49,654 bases of DNA from Candidatus Cloacimonadota bacterium. GTDB taxonomy: Bacteria > Cloacimonadota > Cloacimonadia > Cloacimonadales > TCS61. The notes under the pieces are model-generated. The model was given only the letters and a program-made list of their open reading frames with translations. It did not search any database and was not told where the DNA came from. The translations under genes were made by a program, and so were the position numbers. Location of the stretch: the NCBI GenBank assembly GCA_030620155.1, contig JAUXFF010000003.1, forward strand, positions 1 through 49,654, written 5' to 3'. This document shows, piece after piece, positions 10,542 through 17,686 of the stretch (its first letter is position 1; the number at the start of each line of letters is the position of its first letter).

Positions 10542-11090
10542 CTATTCCTTTACCTTTTCTTCCATCTTCTTCCCTAGAGCTTCCACAGTCTTCTTAAATC
10601 CAATCTCTTTCCTCTTCTTTACTGGTTTTTCCATTAATTGCTGTAAAACCTGAAAGACAATTTTGAATTGTTTATCATATTTCTTTTCTATTTTCTCTAA
10701 TTTCCTGTTTAATTCTTCATTAGTTTTCAAAAGTTCTCGTAATTTAACAAAAGCACGCATAATAGTAATATTCACTTTAATTGCACGTTCGCTGTGAAGT
10801 ACAGAGGAAAGCATGGCAATACCCTGTTCAGTAAATGCAAAAGACAAATATTTTGAATGTTCACCTCTTTTTAAGGTGCCAATTTGACTCCTTAAGAAGT
10901 TGTATTCATCTCTTGTTAATTCAAACATAAAATCTGGAGGAAATCGATCAATATTTCTTCGTACTGCTCGTTTTAGTTGTTTAGTTTCCACTCCATATAG
11001 CTGTGCCAGATCACTATCCAGCATTACTTTTTTACCTCTGATGAGCAGTATTTTATTCATTAAAGATTCTTTAGGAATATGGTCTTTCAT
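10542..11090 (-). CDS. ORF6N-domain DNA-binding protein
   Basis: IRGKKVMLDSDLAQLYGVETK, VRRNIDRFPPDFMFEL, FTEQGIAMLSSVL, IMRAFVKLR, terminal IGF. Confidence 0.93.
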   Translation of the reverse strand: MKDHIPKESLMNKILLIRGKKVMLDSDLAQLYGVETKQLKRAVRRNIDRFPPDFMFELTRDEYNFLRSQIGTLKRGEHSKYLSFAFTEQGIAMLSSVLHSERAIKVNITIMRAFVKLRELLKTNEELNRKLEKIEKKYDKQFKIVFQVLQQLMEKPVKKRKEIGFKKTVEALGKKMEEKVKE

Positions 11091-11206
11091 CTTTTCTCCA
11101 TTTTCTCATTCAAAGCTTCCACAGCTTTCTTGAAGCCAATAAAACTGATAACCGAAACAACTCCTGCAAGTATATATTGTAATGATACTTTAACTATTTT
11201 TTTCAT
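11087..11206 (-). CDS. 39-aa small ORF with a hydrophobic stretch; C-terminus homologous to the ORF6N tail
   Basis: MKKIVKVSLQYILAGVVSVISFIGFKKAVEALNEKMEKR; its stop overlaps the ORF6N ATG (ATGA). Below the ORF-track size cutoff. Confidence 0.45.
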   Translation of the reverse strand: MKKIVKVSLQYILAGVVSVISFIGFKKAVEALNEKMEKR

Positions 11207-11240
11207 CAGATCAACTCAATGGTTAATATTTACATAGTAA

Positions 11241-12075
11241 TTATAAATCAAACTTAAGTTGAGTATTCTCTTTCATTTTCGGTGGATAAAATAAACCAAT
11301 TATCATAAAAGGATTAGGAGATCTTTTATTTTGCCATTTATAATTTGTTCCAACGAAAAAATGTAAATCTTTATGAAATGCAAAATCCTCAAAGTACTTT
11401 TTTCTTACGAGTTTAAGTGCCTTTTGTTCATTATTACAAACTGATTTTAAACAGTTCCAAAATAATGCACCTATTTTCCAATCAATTATTTCAATTTTTC
11501 TGGGATTATTATCTTCTTCAGTAATAAATTTATAATAGAATTTATATGGTAGTTTTCTTACAATTGATGAAAGATTTAGTTCATTAAAGAAATCAAGTTG
11601 CTGCAATTTACCTAACCATTTTTTAGGCCATTCTCTTATAAAAATCAATAATTTTTTTAGGTTTTAAAGTTGCTAAAGATATTTTCTCTTCTCCTAAAGA
11701 AAGTTCAATTAACTCATTAAATGAAGTAAATACATCTTTGAGAACAATTTCTTTTCTTAGTTGCCAATTATTTTCAGTTCCCAATTTGCTTAATATTTTC
11801 AAGTCCTGATCAACGTCACTTTTTGGACTATAAGTCTCAGGTCTGAAATCTGTTTTTCTATGTTTCTTTAAATCAATTTCTATCCAATTATATTTTTTAA
11901 ACTTATTGTACTCAGATAGAAGCCTGAATGGAACAGGATAAATCCTTACCCATTTTCCGTTATCGAGTAACCCTGCAGTGCAGACAATTTCACCATGAAA
12001 ATCCGATGGTTGGGGATATGTCTTAACGGTAATTAGCACCTTTGCTTTTAAGATTTCTCTTGGTAAGTAATTCAT
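11241..12075 (-). pseudogene. Frameshifted conserved hypothetical gene (TVKTYP...VCTAG family, often next to DUF488), split into 11623..12075 and 11241..11648
   Basis: N-half LITVKTYP...VCTAG...WVRIYPVPFR...DFRPETY...SLATLKPK; C-half KLPYKFYYKF...DW.IGALFWNC...DLHFFVGT...NPFMIIGLFYPP. The two ORFs overlap and join with a one-base shift at GAT-TTTT-ATA near 11640. Confidence 0.75.
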
Positions 12076-12948
12076 TTATAGATGTTTAACAATAACTTTA
12101 TAATATGCTTCAAAATAATCAGATATTATGTGACGATGACAATAATTAAAATCTCTCTCAAAACAAGTTAAGGCAATTCTTTCTTTATTATTAAGTATAT
12201 CATATAGGTTTTTTAAGATATTTACATGATTTAGAAAGTTATTTTTTTGATAATGATCGAATAAATTTTTATAATCTTCTTCTGTCTCAAGTTTTGCTCT
12301 ACGATTAGATTCTATCCCAAGTTCAGGTATATGAATGTAATCAACATCAACTCTTTTAAGATGTTCCGAAAATTTCTTTTTTGCAAAATTAAATTTCATA
12401 GAGTATGGATTTTTTCTTACATCTATAATAGTATTAATACGATTTTGAATTAGTATTTGTAGATATTTATCAATTGTTTTACCTTCATAACCTATTGTAA
12501 ACATTGTTTTTTGATTTAATTTTCTATTATTGAGAATCATATTCTTTTCATCACCATCTAAAACATCATCTAAAATAATACTTTTTGAAGCATAAAATGG
12601 ATATTCAAGATAAGTTTTCCTTATTAATTGTTGATTTGTAAGTTTTTTATGTTTTGAAGAAAAATCCATTAAATTTTTACGATCTTCATTCTTAATTTTA
12701 TCAATGAATGAAATATTCTGTTTCAAGATGAAATTATTTTCAGAATCTTCTAAAAATCCTTTTTTTATTAAGATTCTTTTATCTTGATAACTTTGTAAGC
12801 TGAAACAACCATATTTGAAGGGGAAAAAATCATAATAATTATTATGTTTTTTTGAATAAAGAAAAAGTAATTTTTCAAATCTTGTATTACTTAAATTTTT
12901 ACCACAAAATTCAATTAATGATAAGAGAATTTTTCGACGATAATACAT
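12076..12948 (-). CDS. DUF488-family protein with an N-terminal wHTH (SocA/Panacea-like) extension
   Basis: C-domain TIGYEG, IDVRKNPYS, YIHIPELGI, ALTCFERDFNYCHR; N-domain KLLFL...YDFFPFKYGCFS. Confidence 0.85.
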   Translation of the reverse strand: MYYRRKILLSLIEFCGKNLSNTRFEKLLFLYSKKHNNYYDFFPFKYGCFSLQSYQDKRILIKKGFLEDSENNFILKQNISFIDKIKNEDRKNLMDFSSKHKKLTNQQLIRKTYLEYPFYASKSIILDDVLDGDEKNMILNNRKLNQKTMFTIGYEGKTIDKYLQILIQNRINTIIDVRKNPYSMKFNFAKKKFSEHLKRVDVDYIHIPELGIESNRRAKLETEEDYKNLFDHYQKNNFLNHVNILKNLYDILNNKERIALTCFERDFNYCHRHIISDYFEAYYKVIVKHL

Positions 12949-13140
12949 TTATTTTTCCTTATTAATTCTTATACTAACTTATTATTATAATATTTTTTGT
13001 AAAGTAATACATTATTTTTATGAATAGAATAACATTTTTTTATTTTTATATTGTAAAGACAGATTGGTAACCTGCCCCCACAACATATTTTCTTTTGTTC
13101 GTTTTTTATTAGTGATAGTTAGTTGCTAAATTCTTATTCT

Positions 13141-14592
13141 CTACCACTCAAATTTCACATTTAACTGTCTCACAGCAAGAGTATCATCAACTCTTTTCAC
13201 AGGTGTGTTTATCGGTGCATTTTTTAAGACATCCGGATTTTTTTCACTTTCTTTGGCTATTTCGATCATAGCAGTAATGAATTCATCCAGGGTTTCTTTA
13301 CTTTCAGTTTCTGTAGGCTCGATCATCATTGCTTCGGGAACGATCAACGGGAAATAGATAGTTGGAGCATGAAATCCTTTATCCAGGATACGTTTGGCAA
13401 TATCAAGGGTTTTTATTCCATATTTTTCTTTCTGCCATTTACCGCTGGCAATAAATTCATGCATACAATAAGTATCTTTATGCGGAATGTAATAATAATC
13501 TTCCAATTTCTTCATAATATAATTTGCATTTATCACTGCATTTTCTGCAACTCGTTTCAAACCTTTCGCACCAAGCATTTTAAGATAAATAAAAGCACGA
13601 ACATTTACAGCAAAATTTCCAAAGAAGGATTGTACTTTTCCTATCGAAGTTTCTTTAAAAGAATGATCTAAGAAGAATTTATCATCTTTTTTTGTTATCA
13701 TTGGAACAGGAAGGAATTTAACAAGGTCATCACGTACACCAATGGGACCGGAACCCGGACCGCCGCCACCATGTGGCGTAGCGAAAGTTTTATGAAGGTT
13801 AAAATGCATAATGTCAAACCCGATTTCACCTGGTTTAACAATTCCCATGATTGCATTAAAGTTTGCTCCATCCATATACATCAAGCCATCTACACCATGA
13901 ATTATCTCTGCAATTTCCTCGATCTGAGATTCAAACAACCCCAGAGTATTTGGATTTGTGAGCATAAACCCGGCAGTTTCATCATCCACATGAGCTTTCA
14001 GGTCGTCAATATCCACCATACCTTTATCATTAGATTTGATTTCTACAACTTCATATCCTGTAAGGATAACAGTGGCAGGATTAGTTCCATGAGCAGAATC
14101 AGGAAAAATTATCTTTTTCTTGTGAGTATTACCTTTTAATTTATGGTAAGCTCTGATAATCTTTAGTCCTGTAAATTCACCATGAGCCCCTGCAACAGGC
14201 TGAAGGGTCACATTGGCAAATCCTGAAATTTCAGCAAGGTCATTCTGAAGCTCATAAAGGATATCCAACGCTCCCTGCACAGTATCTTCATCCTGAAATG
14301 GATGGAGGTTCATAAAACCATCATTTCTAACAAGAGTTTCGTTTATTTTGGGATTATACTTCATTGTACAGGAACCCAGAGGATAGAATCCCTTCTCAAT
14401 ACAGTGATTCATGTGACTGAGTTCAAGGAAATGGCGCATCACATCAAGCTCACTCACTTCCGGGAATTTAATGTCTTCTTCCCTGTGAAATTTTTCCGGA
14501 ATACATTCGCCCAGAGACACTTCTACATCATTTTTGGGTAACGTGAATCCTTTTCTTCCCTGTGAATGTTTTTCAAATATTGTTTTAGCCAT
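13141..14592 (-). CDS. gcvPB: Glycine dehydrogenase (decarboxylating) subunit 2
   Basis: YPLGSCTMKYNP, SAHGTNPA, HFNLHKTFATPHGGGGPG (PLP lysine), MIEPTETE. Confidence 0.97.
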   Translation of the reverse strand: MAKTIFEKHSQGRKGFTLPKNDVEVSLGECIPEKFHREEDIKFPEVSELDVMRHFLELSHMNHCIEKGFYPLGSCTMKYNPKINETLVRNDGFMNLHPFQDEDTVQGALDILYELQNDLAEISGFANVTLQPVAGAHGEFTGLKIIRAYHKLKGNTHKKKIIFPDSAHGTNPATVILTGYEVVEIKSNDKGMVDIDDLKAHVDDETAGFMLTNPNTLGLFESQIEEIAEIIHGVDGLMYMDGANFNAIMGIVKPGEIGFDIMHFNLHKTFATPHGGGGPGSGPIGVRDDLVKFLPVPMITKKDDKFFLDHSFKETSIGKVQSFFGNFAVNVRAFIYLKMLGAKGLKRVAENAVINANYIMKKLEDYYYIPHKDTYCMHEFIASGKWQKEKYGIKTLDIAKRILDKGFHAPTIYFPLIVPEAMMIEPTETESKETLDEFITAMIEIAKESEKNPDVLKNAPINTPVKRVDDTLAVRQLNVKFEW

Positions 14593-14783
14593 TTATTCTC
14601 CTTTTATATATTTCTCGCAAAGACGCTAAGCTCGCAAAGAAATACTTATTTATAATTTTACTAAGTAATTAAAAACATTAAATAGATTCATAGTAGAGTT
14701 TCTAAGCAATATCGTTAGGTTAAGAAATTCTCTTTTAATCATATATTTGAGATCTTTGCATCCTTTGAACATTAGCGAGAGAA
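14593..14783. repeat. ~190-bp direct repeat copy 1 with imperfect inverted ends (REP/REPIN-like)
   Basis: tttctcgcaaagacgctaagctcgcaaaga ... tctttgcatcctttgaacattagcgagagaa; collinear with 15171..15360. Confidence 0.9.
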
Positions 14784-14792
14784 AAATTTTTT

Positions 14793-15170
14793 TCATAATT
14801 TATTTACGATCCTTGTGATCCCATCTTTGATTAGATTTACATTGAAATTGATTAATAAACCTAGTTTTAATTCACTTAATTTCAAATAAGTTAGTAGTTG
14901 TTTCTTATGAACAGGTAAAATATCTTTGACTGACTTTAATTCAATTATTACTTTATTCTCAACAATAATATCAACTCTAAAGCCAAAATCAATAATCTTA
15001 TCATCATATTTTATCGGGACGCCCACTTGATTTCGAATATTCAATCCCATCTTTGTTAAATCATATATCATTAATTTTTCATAAACAGATTCAAGAAGAC
15101 CAGGACCAAACCTTTTGTGAATCCTGTAAGCACAATCGACAATAATTTTTGATATTTCGTTTTCTGTCAT
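14793..15170 (-). CDS. GxxExxY protein (PD-(D/E)xK nuclease-like family)
   Basis: GPGLLESVYE, FRVDIIVENKVIIELKSV, QLLTYLK...GLLINFN. Confidence 0.95.
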   Translation of the reverse strand: MTENEISKIIVDCAYRIHKRFGPGLLESVYEKLMIYDLTKMGLNIRNQVGVPIKYDDKIIDFGFRVDIIVENKVIIELKSVKDILPVHKKQLLTYLKLSELKLGLLINFNVNLIKDGITRIVNKL

Positions 15171-15360
15171 ATTTTCCTTTTTTATATTTCTAGCAAAGAC
15201 GCGAAGCTCGCAAAGAAATACTTATTCATAATTTTACTAAGTAATTAAAAAAAAATAAGTAAATTCATAGTAGAGTTTCTAAGCAATATCGTTGGGTTAA
15301 AAAATTTTCTTTTAATCATATATTTAAAATCTTTGCGTCCTTTGCGCCTTAGCGAGAGAA
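15171..15360. repeat. ~190-bp direct repeat copy 2, overlapping the gcvPA stop codon
   Basis: tttctagcaaagacgcgaagctcgcaaaga ... tctttgcgtcctttgcgccttagcgagagaa. Confidence 0.9.
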
Positions 15361-16689
15361 TTCCTTCAGAGAATTAATTAACTCATCCAAATCCCATTTC
15401 CTCTTCTTCTCGGTTACCGCAATTAGCAGCATATTCTCATATCCGAATTGTTTTAAATCTACTCCCGGGAAAATATTCTTAGATTTTAATTTTTCAATTA
15501 TTTCTTTAGCGAGAACGGGAGTTTTAATTGCAAATTCTTTAAAGAAAGGAGCTTCAAATGCCAATGAAAATCCATTGATTTTACTTATTTTTCCTGCTAG
15601 GTAATGAGCCTTAGTTGTGCTTTGAATTGCTACTTCTTTCAGCCCCTCTTTTCCCATTAAGGTCATATAGACTGTGGCTGCCAAATTGCATAGAGCTTCA
15701 TTTGAACAAATATTGGAAGTGGATTTTGCCCGACGAATATGCTGCTCCCGTGCCTGCAGGGTCAAACAGTATGCTTTTTCCCCGTCAGCATCGAGAGTCT
15801 CTCCTACGATCCTTCCGGGTATGGTTCTGGCAAGAAAGAGTTTGCTTGCTAAAAATCCAAAGAGAGGACCACCGTAATTTTGAGCATTTCCCAATGCCTG
15901 TCCTTCACCTACAACAATATCAGCATTGTATTCAGAGGGAGAATTTAAAACTGCAAGTGAAATCGGATCGACAGCAACTATAAAAAGCGCCTTCTTGGAA
16001 GTATGAGTTATTTCCTCGACGGCAAATGCATCTTCGATATTCCCAAAGAAATTAGGAGTCTGTAGAAGAACGCAGCCTGTGTTATCATCTATAGCATCTT
16101 TTAAAGCCTCCAGATCGACCATCCCATTTTTGGAAGGAACATAAACAAGTTCAATTCCAATACCTTCCGTATAAGATTTAATAACTTCAAGATAAAGGGG
16201 ATTGATCGTTCCGGCGATTACAGCCTTAAAATTCTTGGTTTTCCTGGAAGCCATCAGGATCGCTTCTGCAGCAGCAGAGGCGCCGTCATACATACCCGCA
16301 TTTGAGATTTCCATCCCTGTCAATTCACAGATAAGAGTCTGGTATTCGTAGATATATTGCAAAGTTCCCTGACTTACTTCTGCCTGGTAGGGTGTATACG
16401 CACTGTGAAATTCAGGTCTGAGAACAATATGATCAACCGCAGCCGGGATGAAATGGTCATAGACACCGGCACCGAGAAATGAGATTGCTTTTTCAGTTGA
16501 AATATTTTTGGCAGCGAGTTCAGAGATCTTGCGTGTGATATCCAGCTCGGAATATGGTTCTTCCAAACTGCAGAGTTCTTTTAGGATGAATTTCTTCGGG
16601 ATATCGGTTAGCAAATCTTCAAATTTTTTCACACCGATTTCCGCTAACATTTCTTTCCTGTCTTTATCAGTATTGGAAATAAAAGGCAT
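15349..16689 (-). CDS. gcvPA: Glycine dehydrogenase (decarboxylating) subunit 1
   Basis: FLGAGVYDHFIP, AYTPYQAEVSQGTLQ, LTLQAREQHIRRAKSTSNICSN. Confidence 0.97.
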   Translation of the reverse strand: MPFISNTDKDRKEMLAEIGVKKFEDLLTDIPKKFILKELCSLEEPYSELDITRKISELAAKNISTEKAISFLGAGVYDHFIPAAVDHIVLRPEFHSAYTPYQAEVSQGTLQYIYEYQTLICELTGMEISNAGMYDGASAAAEAILMASRKTKNFKAVIAGTINPLYLEVIKSYTEGIGIELVYVPSKNGMVDLEALKDAIDDNTGCVLLQTPNFFGNIEDAFAVEEITHTSKKALFIVAVDPISLAVLNSPSEYNADIVVGEGQALGNAQNYGGPLFGFLASKLFLARTIPGRIVGETLDADGEKAYCLTLQAREQHIRRAKSTSNICSNEALCNLAATVYMTLMGKEGLKEVAIQSTTKAHYLAGKISKINGFSLAFEAPFFKEFAIKTPVLAKEIIEKLKSKNIFPGVDLKQFGYENMLLIAVTEKKRKWDLDELINSLKEFSR

Positions 16690-16942
16690 AAATCTCTCCT
16701 TATTCTTTTAATTCTTATTCAAATTTTTTTAATAAAATATTCTGTCAAATGAAAAGCGAATATTGGTTTGTACTTATTACGAAAATTTTAACCCGTTGAA
16801 TAACATGTCCTGTTTCGTAACATAAAAAATTCAGTTTTAAAACTTATCATTATGACATTATTTGAAACAAATCCGGTTAAAATAGTATTCAAATAGATGA
16901 GTGAATCTTACTTAGGTATTTTTTAAATTTATTAATGGATTT

Positions 16943-17686
16943 TTATATCAATCTCAACCCTGAAATAATCGAAAGTATTCCCATAATCATCAGAAGAACC
17001 AGTGTGATTTTCCTGAATGATTCTTCTTTGATCTTTTTTGATAAAATATTTCCAGCTAAAACTCCTATTAATAAAGAAGGGAAAAATTTTGCTGAATAAC
17101 TTAAAACCTGAGTTGTGATAAGCCCATTCCAAAAATAAACCGGGATAGTAAAAATATTCAGGATGAAAAAATAAACTGCTAGATTTGCTCGAAATGTTTG
17201 TTTGTTCACTCCCTGATTTGAAAGGAACAGAATTACCGGTGGACCGCCCATGGATATACTTCCACTTAATATTCCACTGAATATTCCAATCGGAATCATG
17301 GATAGTTTTTCCCGTTTGATCTCTTTTCTGAAACCTGAAAGAAGAAGAATTCCAAAAATGGTAATAAATATTCCAATTATAAGTTTTATGATGTTATCAT
17401 CTAAAACAACAAGAAAATAAGCTCCTAATGGCATTCCTATTATTCCGAAAATCATTAAAAGCCAGATTTTTTTTATTTTAAAAGCTTTTCTGGCAGAAGA
17501 GAAGACAACAATATTGATAACAAGAGAGAACAAAACAAGTATTGGAACAACGATTTTGGGGGAGATAAAGAGCGTTATCAAAGGAACTGCCAGGATTGAG
17601 AAACCAAAACCGGATAAACCCTGAAGCATTGCAGAAAAGAAGATAATCAAAGAACCGAATATTATTATATCGGAGATTAAATTCAT
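16943..17686 (-). CDS. TSUP (TauE/SafE) family membrane transporter
   Basis: QGLSGFGFSILAVP and GSISMGGPP motifs, about 8 TM segments. Confidence 0.9.
   Translation of the reverse strand: MNLISDIIIFGSLIIFFSAMLQGLSGFGFSILAVPLITLFISPKIVVPILVLFSLVINIVVFSSARKAFKIKKIWLLMIFGIIGMPLGAYFLVVLDDNIIKLIIGIFITIFGILLLSGFRKEIKREKLSMIPIGIFSGILSGSISMGGPPVILFLSNQGVNKQTFRANLAVYFFILNIFTIPVYFWNGLITTQVLSYSAKFFPSLLIGVLAGNILSKKIKEESFRKITLVLLMIMGILSIISGLRLI

Follow-up and report, generated by a model that had tools for sequence, protein, structure and literature searches.

The window analysed here is a stretch of 49,654 nucleotides (contig JAUXFF010000003.1) from a Candidatus Cloacimonadota bacterium (assembly GCA_030620155.1, hereafter G000), a metagenome bin of 243 contigs and 2,502,753 bases that is 92.7% complete. 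In this window the genes for the two glycine dehydrogenase subunits, gcvPA and gcvPB, are separated by a small cassette, such that the minus-strand order is gcvPA, a 190-bp repeat, a GxxExxY gene, a 191-bp repeat and gcvPB. We conclude that this is very probably a laterally mobile selfish cassette. The best overall explanation, which we consider rather probable, is that it is a selfish, laterally moving PD-(D/E)xK nuclease cassette equipped with cognate repeat arms. An original prediction made from the sequence alone had described a GxxExxY cassette with collinear, inverted-end repeats between the two genes, and this layout was confirmed by the sequence itself, by blastn and by profile matches. 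The same arrangement occurs in four other genomes (G112, G100, G105 and G092), and metagenome contigs from public runs tile it independently. The features of the locus are as follows (RBS, ribosome-binding site).

15349-16689, minus strand: gcvPA, glycine dehydrogenase subunit 1 (PF02347, E 1.4e-123)
15171-15360, minus strand: repeat copy B (L arm, 130-nt middle, R arm, RBS), between gcvPA and the nuclease gene
15330-15357, minus strand: L arm of copy B, three CGC(A/T)AAG-type words, word 1 holding the gcvPA stop codon
15189-15216, minus strand: R arm of copy B, an imperfect reverse complement of the L arm (from sequence and fold)
15175-15179, minus strand: AAGGA RBS of the GxxExxY gene, 5 nt ahead of its ATG (read from the sequence)
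14793-15170, minus strand: GxxExxY gene, 125 amino acids (PF13366, TIGR04256)
14593-14783, minus strand: repeat copy A, the same module as copy B, between the nuclease gene and gcvPB
14753-14780, minus strand: L arm of copy A, which repeats TTCTCTCGCTAA, the element-derived end of gcvPA
14613-14640, minus strand: R arm of copy A (from sequence and fold)
14598-14603, minus strand: AAGGAG RBS of gcvPB, from the end of copy A (read from the sequence)
13141-14592, minus strand: gcvPB, glycine dehydrogenase subunit 2 (PF21478, PF02347)

Results

The gcvPA-gcvPB junction exists in several states among relatives

We compared the junction in 52 fetched gcvPA-gcvPB loci, comprising that of G000 and those of 51 relatives from the same family or order. 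The junction is empty in 38 of the 52, with a gap of -8 to +1 and the stop codon of the first gene overlapping the start of the second. Specifically, gcvPA in these empty alleles ends in ...QEV(I/T)NG-stop, with a stop that overlaps codons 2 and 3 of gcvPB, whose RBS (AGGAGG) is located within the coding end of gcvPA. The GxxExxY cassette is present in five of the loci, where gaps are 653-756 nt (G000, G112, G100 of genus label g17; G105, G092 of g12). Another five carry a cassette of 474-483 nt in which an open reading frame (ORF) for a Vsr-like DUF559 protein (PF04480, E 4e-28) lies between GC-rich inverted arms. G118 is a sixth DUF559 junction, at which a gene-less GC-rich hairpin is followed by a DUF559 gene and one arm. 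That hairpin (the first 110 nt of locus L086) is composed of two DUF559-type arms around about 35 nt, directly upstream of the cassette. The 51-nt scar in G116 equals what would remain if the DUF559 cassette of G114, its nearest neighbour, lost the part between short repeats in the two arms. G018 has a 27-nt spacer at the junction, and the contig of G016 ends one base ahead of the gcvPB ATG.

When these states are placed on a gcvPB tree, every occupied allele falls inside one 28-row subclade. Within it an 11-row clade with end branches of at most 0.04 contains four DUF559 alleles, three GxxExxY alleles, two empty alleles and one scar. Since a single clade holds empty, GxxExxY, DUF559 and scar states, the junction is a turnover site and not a fixed feature. 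The earlier proposal of an insertion at an operon junction is therefore well founded, as the same junction is empty in 38 of the 52 genomes and the cassette is not fixed in the lineage.

We also analysed contigs of four public cold-seep metagenome runs, a type of data that drops rare variants. Among the public runs with the locus, none is recorded as RNA. Three contig pieces from run X1 tile the cassette arrangement, and runs X2 and X6 contain cassette-bearing variants at 95-97% identity, one of which (in X2) is without the L arm of copy A (region 14705-14787). Runs X2 and X5 contain a joint from 14593 to 15368 with 13 other letters between the two sides, which represents an empty junction. 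The flanks of this joint are only about 85-90% like the window, indicating that it belongs to a relative. Joints from 15215 to 15327 and from 15222 to 15326 in the X1, X2 and X6 community place the two arms of copy B side by side, much like the compact hairpin that is described below for G105 and G092. These short-sided joints were not counted as variants of this strain, since their sides are only 21-23 nt and other loci or G105-like alleles are possible sources. A search of JGI metagenome contigs for the 29-nt pattern of the repeat middle gave 0 matches and a protein scan of them gave no copy above 70% identity, results that are uninformative on excision.

The nuclease gene is less diverged than the genes that flank it

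Divergence at synonymous sites (dS, by the Nei-Gojobori method, with gcvPA represented by its last 200 codons) was compared between the cassette and its flanks. Between G000 and the four other carriers, dS of the nuclease gene is 0.16-0.29, as opposed to 1.1-2.0 for gcvPA and 1.7-2.4 for gcvPB in the same pairs. In the pair G105-G092 it is 0.00, relative to 0.29 for gcvPA and 0.47 for gcvPB. Because dS of the cassette is far below that of its flanks, the cassette entered these junctions long after the hosts diverged, by lateral movement into the same site. By this measure it is about ten times younger than its flanks, and it arrived at this one junction in at least five species belonging to three genera. 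The suggestion that this is a mobile unit thus gains support from a dS of 0.16-0.29 in the cassette versus 1.1-2.4 in the flanks. The nuclease gene exhibits a ratio of nonsynonymous to synonymous divergence (dN/dS) of about 0.1.

Identity along the locus falls from 90-98% in the gene to 77-90% in the repeats and 65-88% in the flanks, and by hand arithmetic the repeats at 84-87% identity about fit neutral DNA of the gene's age. In the aligned last 60 nt of gcvPA, carrier pairs are 86.5% identical versus 76.7% for pairs of a carrier and a non-carrier. As flank identity is raised only in this part of gcvPA, the exchanged tract would end close to the ends of the cassette. Within the tight clade the DUF559 cassettes have a dS of 0.35-0.84 versus 0.43-0.70 for gcvPB, values close enough to each other that the DUF559 cassettes look like older residents. 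Finally, in regards to G100 (g17), dS of its gcvPA and gcvPB is 0.5-0.6 to G105 and G092 (g12) versus 2.1-2.9 to G112, which carries the same genus label as G100; either the whole gcv locus may have been exchanged or the contig may have been mis-binned.

The element supplies a stop codon and ribosome-binding sites

The last three codons of gcvPA together with its stop (FSR-TAA, 15349-15360) are located inside repeat copy B. An ending in ...(F/L)SR-stop is exhibited by all GxxExxY alleles, by the scar allele and by four DUF559 alleles out of the five whose gcvPA end is readable; the gcvPA ends of G079 and G008 differ from it. Alleles with this ending contain the sequence TTCTCTCGCTAA in all cases except G099. 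Read in frame, the arm gives S-R-stop-G-A-K-D-A-K, where a single base change in word 1 gives the stop. The outer end of the arm (TCTCGCAAAG or TCACGCAAAG) also closes the arms of this protein's relatives in other phyla, in which TCTCGC... is the conserved terminus. Given that this outer end is common to relatives from other phyla, the SR-stop codons of gcvPA are element DNA.

These observations agree with what had been claimed for the repeats, namely that they provide the stop of gcvPA (the FSR-stop lies in copy B and its outer end recurs in the arms of relatives) and that each copy ends in the RBS of the next gene (AAGGA before the GxxExxY ATG, AAGGAG before the gcvPB ATG). They also account for the proposed non-disruptive nature of the insertion, in which the arm forms a new gcvPA end with its stop and the repeats bring RBSs, replacing the overlapping stop and start. 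Judged from its sequence, the insertion appears to be built to be harmless to gcvPA and gcvPB.

There is also a trace of the arm in alleles that lack the GxxExxY gene. G011, G099, G114 and G116 keep TCTCGCTAA followed, 10 nt on, by a second CGCTAA word, which we read as a probable remnant of a CGCAAAG-type arm. If so, a word-armed element would have been first at this junction, with the DUF559 cassette later replacing most of it. An AGGA target-site duplication can be read at the insertion point, which we regard as too short to claim.

The repeats are inverted arms around an AT-rich middle

Each repeat consists of a 28-nt purine-rich arm, a 130-nt AT-rich middle, an imperfect reverse complement of the arm and an RBS, with the words in the arm spaced about 9-10 nt apart. 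About 22 of 28 positions pair between the L and R arms by eye, and the arms pair in both single-sequence and consensus predicted folds. Copies A and B share 90% identity over 191 nt by blastn (90.5% over ungapped columns) and differ at about 18 positions; a repeat finder run on the sequence also picks out the pair. When both copies were compared with the whole genome by blastn, the full repeat was found at these two places only, which excludes chance. The arm alone gave blastn matches at three further places in the genome, and a pattern search for the arm word returned three genome matches, two of them at this locus.

Identity between the two copies within a genome is 90.5% in G000, 90.4% in G112 and 93.6% in G100, while G000 and G112 share 83.8% and 87.2% identity at the orthologous positions. 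The copies of G112 and G100, which share one genus label, are 91.3% and 92.3% identical across genomes and are as alike as copies within a genome. In addition, one stretch is common to both G000 copies and unlike every other copy. Copies that are more alike within a genome than at orthologous positions point to gene conversion or repeated duplication between them. Only the downstream copy is of full length in G105 and G092, their upstream copy being a compact hairpin (an arm, about 30 nt and a partial arm).

We considered whether the 130-nt middle might be a decayed gene and rejected this, as tblastn with GxxExxY and DUF559 proteins as queries yielded no consistent match among the ten repeat copies (best E 0.04, against a very small database). 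A 48-amino-acid ORF at 14650-14796 is without a family and by eye is not kept in other copies, and was set aside as spurious. The one Rfam match over 13000-17500, to a plant snoRNA within gcvPB, is below threshold (E 0.1), and we take it as chance. A promoter scan found 7 promoter-like sites versus 6.0 expected, and one weak terminator-like site falls within an R arm; both results are uninformative.

Two further observations concern the arm outside of this locus. A three-word CGCAAAG arm is present in frame in coding sequence at three places in G000 (C90:2892-2930, C69:3135-3172 and C219:1494-1533) and also in loci L070, L071 and L075. These coding copies are 83-90% identical over about 40 nt, including about 10 nt that match the flank, and translate as ...FNISRKDAKNAKIEI(F/Y)NIKGQKV, a tail which we take to resemble a type IX secretion system (T9SS)-type C-terminal sorting tail. 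These tails may have taken up a solo arm, given that cassettes in other phyla share the arm sequence. The second observation is that the arm region has a read depth of 61-245x in metagenome contigs versus the 4-30x that is typical of other bins, indicating that the arm is a common repeat in these sediments.

The cassette encodes a full-length GxxExxY protein

The protein is a full-length member of the GxxExxY (PDDEXK_3) family, with matches to PF13366 (E 1.2e-39; 135.7 bits versus a cut-off of 22) and TIGR04256 (E 6.8e-42; 142.5 bits versus a cut-off of 35). Residues that are invariant in 30 aligned sequences are G22, G24, E27, Y30, Y55, D67, E77, K79, Q91, Y95, G104, N108, F109 and R120, and these include both the GxxExxY motif (G24, E27, Y30) and the D...ExK core (D67, E77, K79). 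The nuclease gene is intact, with invariant putative catalytic residues and a predicted PD-(D/E)xK fold. Specifically, an AlphaFold model with a pLDDT of 96.2 has PD-(D/E)xK nucleases as all of its best structural matches (BpuSI nuclease domain, Z 8.2; 3ijm, 8.1; CinB, 8.0; Cas4, 7.6; Hjc, 6.8). The Foldseek rows are weak (best E 1.7e-3) and Z scores near 8 are middling, so we take the modelled structure as support for a restriction-endonuclease-like fold and not for a specific function. A match to a designed repeat protein in a PDB sequence search was taken as spurious, and a homodimer prediction, run without controls, scored 0.00 and is evidence neither way.

The enzyme subfamily and the arm word occur together across phyla

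Outside of the five orthologous cassettes, the nearest relatives of the protein are 57-70% identical and come mostly from other phyla, with record titles that name Bacteroidota, Nitrospirota, Ignavibacteria, Brocadiaceae, Acidobacteriota, Chlorobiota and Verrucomicrobiota, while paralogues from its own order reach at most 54%. Sets of relatives were picked by protein similarity alone. At least three CGCNRAG words lie within 120 nt of the gene in 70 of 76 genome loci of the 57-70% relatives, where the median is 6 words per locus versus a background of 0.26 per 240 nt. The same number of words is found at only 2 of 34 loci of same-order paralogues (30-54% identity). A separate set of metagenome contigs gave this many words at 70 of 74 loci (6 of 80 having been dropped because their flanks were too short), for a total of 140 of 150 loci of relatives at 56-70% identity. 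The enzyme subfamily and the arm word are therefore co-inherited across phyla at unrelated sites, which fits the arms being the enzyme's own recognition sites.

What travels with the enzyme is the 28-nt word arm and not the 130-nt middle. An expectation that the full 190-bp repeat would accompany GxxExxY genes elsewhere in the genome did not hold, as no such co-location was found. Among relatives, direct repeats of at least 100 nt surround the gene in 3 of 72, one of which, L130, has a hairpin module on each side.

G000 itself contains five PF13366 genes, each flanked by its own word family. The other four are located at C149:16400-16870, C122:18960-19900, C106:4600-4859 and C210:7780-8640, and their words are of the GCAGAGA, CACTGAC and CACGAAA types. 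By reading, the C149 gene stands between acyl-CoA-synthetase-like and carrier-protein-like genes of one apparent operon, and the C210 and C122 genes have several tandem arm copies on both sides. The single DUF559 gene of this genome (C106:440-990, L187) has a direct copy of a self-complementary, GC-rich module of about 55 nt on either side, and its plan, a gene between two hairpin modules, is that seen in the window.

At the level of the order, PF13366 matches over the Pfam cut-off were found in 55 of 80 relatives, at 0-11 per genome. An inverted match between upstream and downstream sequence that exceeds all 30 shuffles was observed for 23 of 33 GxxExxY genes of the order. Once gene ends had been refined, 32 genes had a median inverted score of 32, versus 17 for 14 control ORFs from the same loci (Mann-Whitney p 4e-5, a value that overstates the case since loci that are related do not count as independent).

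A run of small genes downstream of gcvPB

Directly downstream of gcvPB, a minus-strand run of small genes (10542-12948) codes for an ORF6N-domain protein (PF10543), a DUF488 protein (PF04343) and two ORFs without a family. This run may be another inserted block.

Discussion

How the cassette might move

The original prediction of a transposase-free unit made up of a nuclease gene and hairpin repeats is consistent with our results, in that there is no transposase nearby and the only two tyrosine recombinases of the genome are on other contigs (PF00589 matches on C41 and C61 only, in a genome profile search). In the mechanism that we propose, the nuclease would bind the three-word arrays in both arms of the cassette and would cut either at the arms (as hairpin or cruciform) or at an unoccupied site, after which host recombination or repair would copy or replace the cassette. 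The 190-bp direct repeats would be two copies of the hairpin module that arose by duplication or by recombination at the arms, and gene conversion would keep these modules alike. That the nuclease has such a specific role in movement of the cassette is a tentative proposal, to which we give slightly less than an even chance.

Several of our results weigh against this interpretation. With respect to the arms, nuclease cutting and word binding are both inferred from sequence; folds of the whole repeat are weak relative to shuffles (z -2.1 and -0.84), and compensatory changes occur in none of 39 predicted pairs among eight repeat copies, such that arm pairing is a property of the inverted repeat with no evidence of selected RNA structure. 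The inverted score of the window's own GxxExxY gene is below that of its best shuffle (32 versus 34). The arm word is not dispersed as hairpins in the genome, where, apart from three copies in coding sequence, it was found at this locus alone, a count that repeats under-assembled in this fragmented assembly may affect. With respect to alleles, the original prediction suggested looking for empty or single-repeat junctions in relatives; empty ones exist, as described above, and a gene-less allele with a single repeat is absent from all 52. The original prediction also held that the unit could excise by recombination between the two copies, and for this strain the contigs of the four runs likewise yielded no allele that was circular, freshly emptied or reduced to a single repeat. 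With respect to flanks, the first 60 nt of gcvPB are not raised in identity among carriers (79.2 versus 79.7%), and the co-conversion expected of classical homing is limited to a rise in the last 60 nt of gcvPA. Finally, related loci do not count as independent samples, all of the genomes are metagenome bins, and the gcvPB tree, on which genomes labelled g12 and g17 are intermingled, is from a quick IQ-TREE search with SH-aLRT support only.

Alternative explanations

The alternative that survives best, which we regard as unlikely, is that the cassette is passive cargo. In this case the nuclease would serve the cell in defence or repair, the unit would have spread among related Cloacimonadota only by ordinary uptake and homologous recombination under selection, and the arms would be insulating or stabilising hairpins. 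The low dN/dS of about 0.1 indicates that the protein is kept functional, and both the lack of a dispersed repeat population in the genome and the lack of excision products in the run contigs are as this explanation would have it. However, the distribution of the family is patchy, with a match in 55 of 80 relatives and 0-11 copies per genome, and at this very junction an unrelated nuclease cassette or a scar takes its place. Tight coupling of enzyme and word across phyla at unrelated sites fits an element with enzyme-specific ends and not a host gene, and the transfer tracts end within about 60 nt of the cassette.

A second alternative is modelled on REP/REPIN elements, which are associated with RAYT transposases in systems that are described as mostly vertically inherited (PMC3116915, PMC3337134). 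Here a resident and mainly vertical nuclease would spread or maintain gene-less hairpins, with the gene itself being immobile. The layout of the cassette is compatible with this, as a single small enzyme gene lies between enzyme-specific hairpin repeats, with a separate repeat for each lineage of the enzyme. Gene-less hairpins are also present at the junction in relatives (the compact upstream hairpin of G105 and G092, the GC-rich hairpin of G118), and the arm region reaches 61-245x in metagenome contigs. The differences are considerable, though. The gene is about ten times younger than its flanks and, unlike what is described for RAYT systems, is itself laterally mobile. Each arm consists of three 7-9-nt words in an array, and no dispersed population of hairpins with the arm word exists in the genome. 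As for the enzyme, PF13366 is its only family match, and it is a PD-(D/E)xK protein and not an HUH tyrosine transposase. We consider this alternative to be quite improbable.

Still less credible, and in our estimate very improbable, is an integron-like origin in which the 190-bp self-complementary repeats would serve as attC-like sites and the recombinase acting on them would be encoded elsewhere. In integrons, gene cassettes with attC sites have a promoterless ORF bounded by direct copies of an imperfect palindrome and are exchanged at one site. The cassette resembles them in having a promoterless ORF between direct imperfect-palindrome copies, and in that cassettes with shared short ends have been swapped at a single site. 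Nevertheless, there is no integrase or attI nearby, and neither of the only two tyrosine recombinases of the genome is on this contig. The GxxExxY and DUF559 cassettes have unrelated arms, each nuclease family having its own, and the cassette is usually single and not in an array. No integron core-site motif was seen in the arms by eye, and 69 of 72 relatives are without direct repeats of at least 100 nt around the gene. A chance repeat or assembly artefact, which a fragmented metagenome bin of 243 contigs might invite, has a negligible probability given that the two copies differ at about 18 positions and that the same arrangement is seen in four further genomes and in independent contigs from other runs.

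Relationship to known elements

Taken as a selfish nuclease cassette, the element works most like a free-standing homing endonuclease gene, and it is a member of none of the systems with which we compared it. Published accounts describe intronless homing by free-standing homing endonuclease genes such as the mobE and seg genes of phage T4 (PMC2790892, PMC2988022), define homing, and include PD-(D/E)XK and EDxHD among six families of homing endonucleases (PMC2790892, PMC6083498). As with these genes, the cassette has a small nuclease ORF between conserved genes, is present or absent at the same site and is much younger than its flanks, and its predicted fold is among those reported for homing enzymes in these accounts. 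In contrast to them, it carries enzyme-specific inverted word arms, shows co-conversion of at most about 60 nt on one side, has relatives at unrelated sites in other phyla, and resides in a bacterial chromosome and not in a phage or intron.

Intervening sequences of 23S rRNA that contain an ORF are a further point of comparison, an example being a 428-nt element with an S23p ORF (PMC4990558). The cassette is similar to these in its size class, in having an ORF within pairing ends and in lying inside a transcription unit without destroying it. It differs in that it resides in a protein-coding operon, has an ORF of another family and shows no stem covariation.

Full-text searches for 'GxxExxY' and 'PDDEXK_3' returned papers whose consulted passages give no function or mobility, and none of the titles and abstracts listed for 'DUF559' is about such cassettes. 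These full-text searches gave no description in print of this kind of cassette.

Significance for the GxxExxY family

GxxExxY proteins are very common and, to our knowledge, are without a known role. This window contributes the allelic series, the tenfold contrast in dS, the replacement by a second nuclease fold and the cross-phylum coupling of enzyme and word relative to paralogues. The allelic series, in which one junction is empty, occupied, replaced and scarred within one clade, is clean natural-history evidence of mobile DNA, and the cassette illustrates how two translationally coupled genes can be harmlessly separated by an insertion.

It is possible, at somewhat less than even odds and with less confidence than we give to a role of the nuclease in movement, that GxxExxY genes with word arms are a distinct autonomous class of minimal bacterial mobile element. 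If this were true, a nuclease of about 125 amino acids and three-word arrays at the ends of a 0.45-0.75 kb cassette would suffice for an element. Such elements would move across phyla and settle in gene junctions by bringing their own stop codon and RBSs, and their rivalry with DUF559 cassettes for the same junctions would constitute an undescribed ecology of minimal nuclease elements.

For the family, an annotation of 'function unknown' becomes a testable claim, namely that the GxxExxY protein should bind or cut arrays of the CGCAAAG word. If the proposed mechanism is true, a minimal nuclease-based element would be added to the known kinds of bacterial mobile DNA, and the family would be a source of sequence-programmable pairs of nuclease and repeat.

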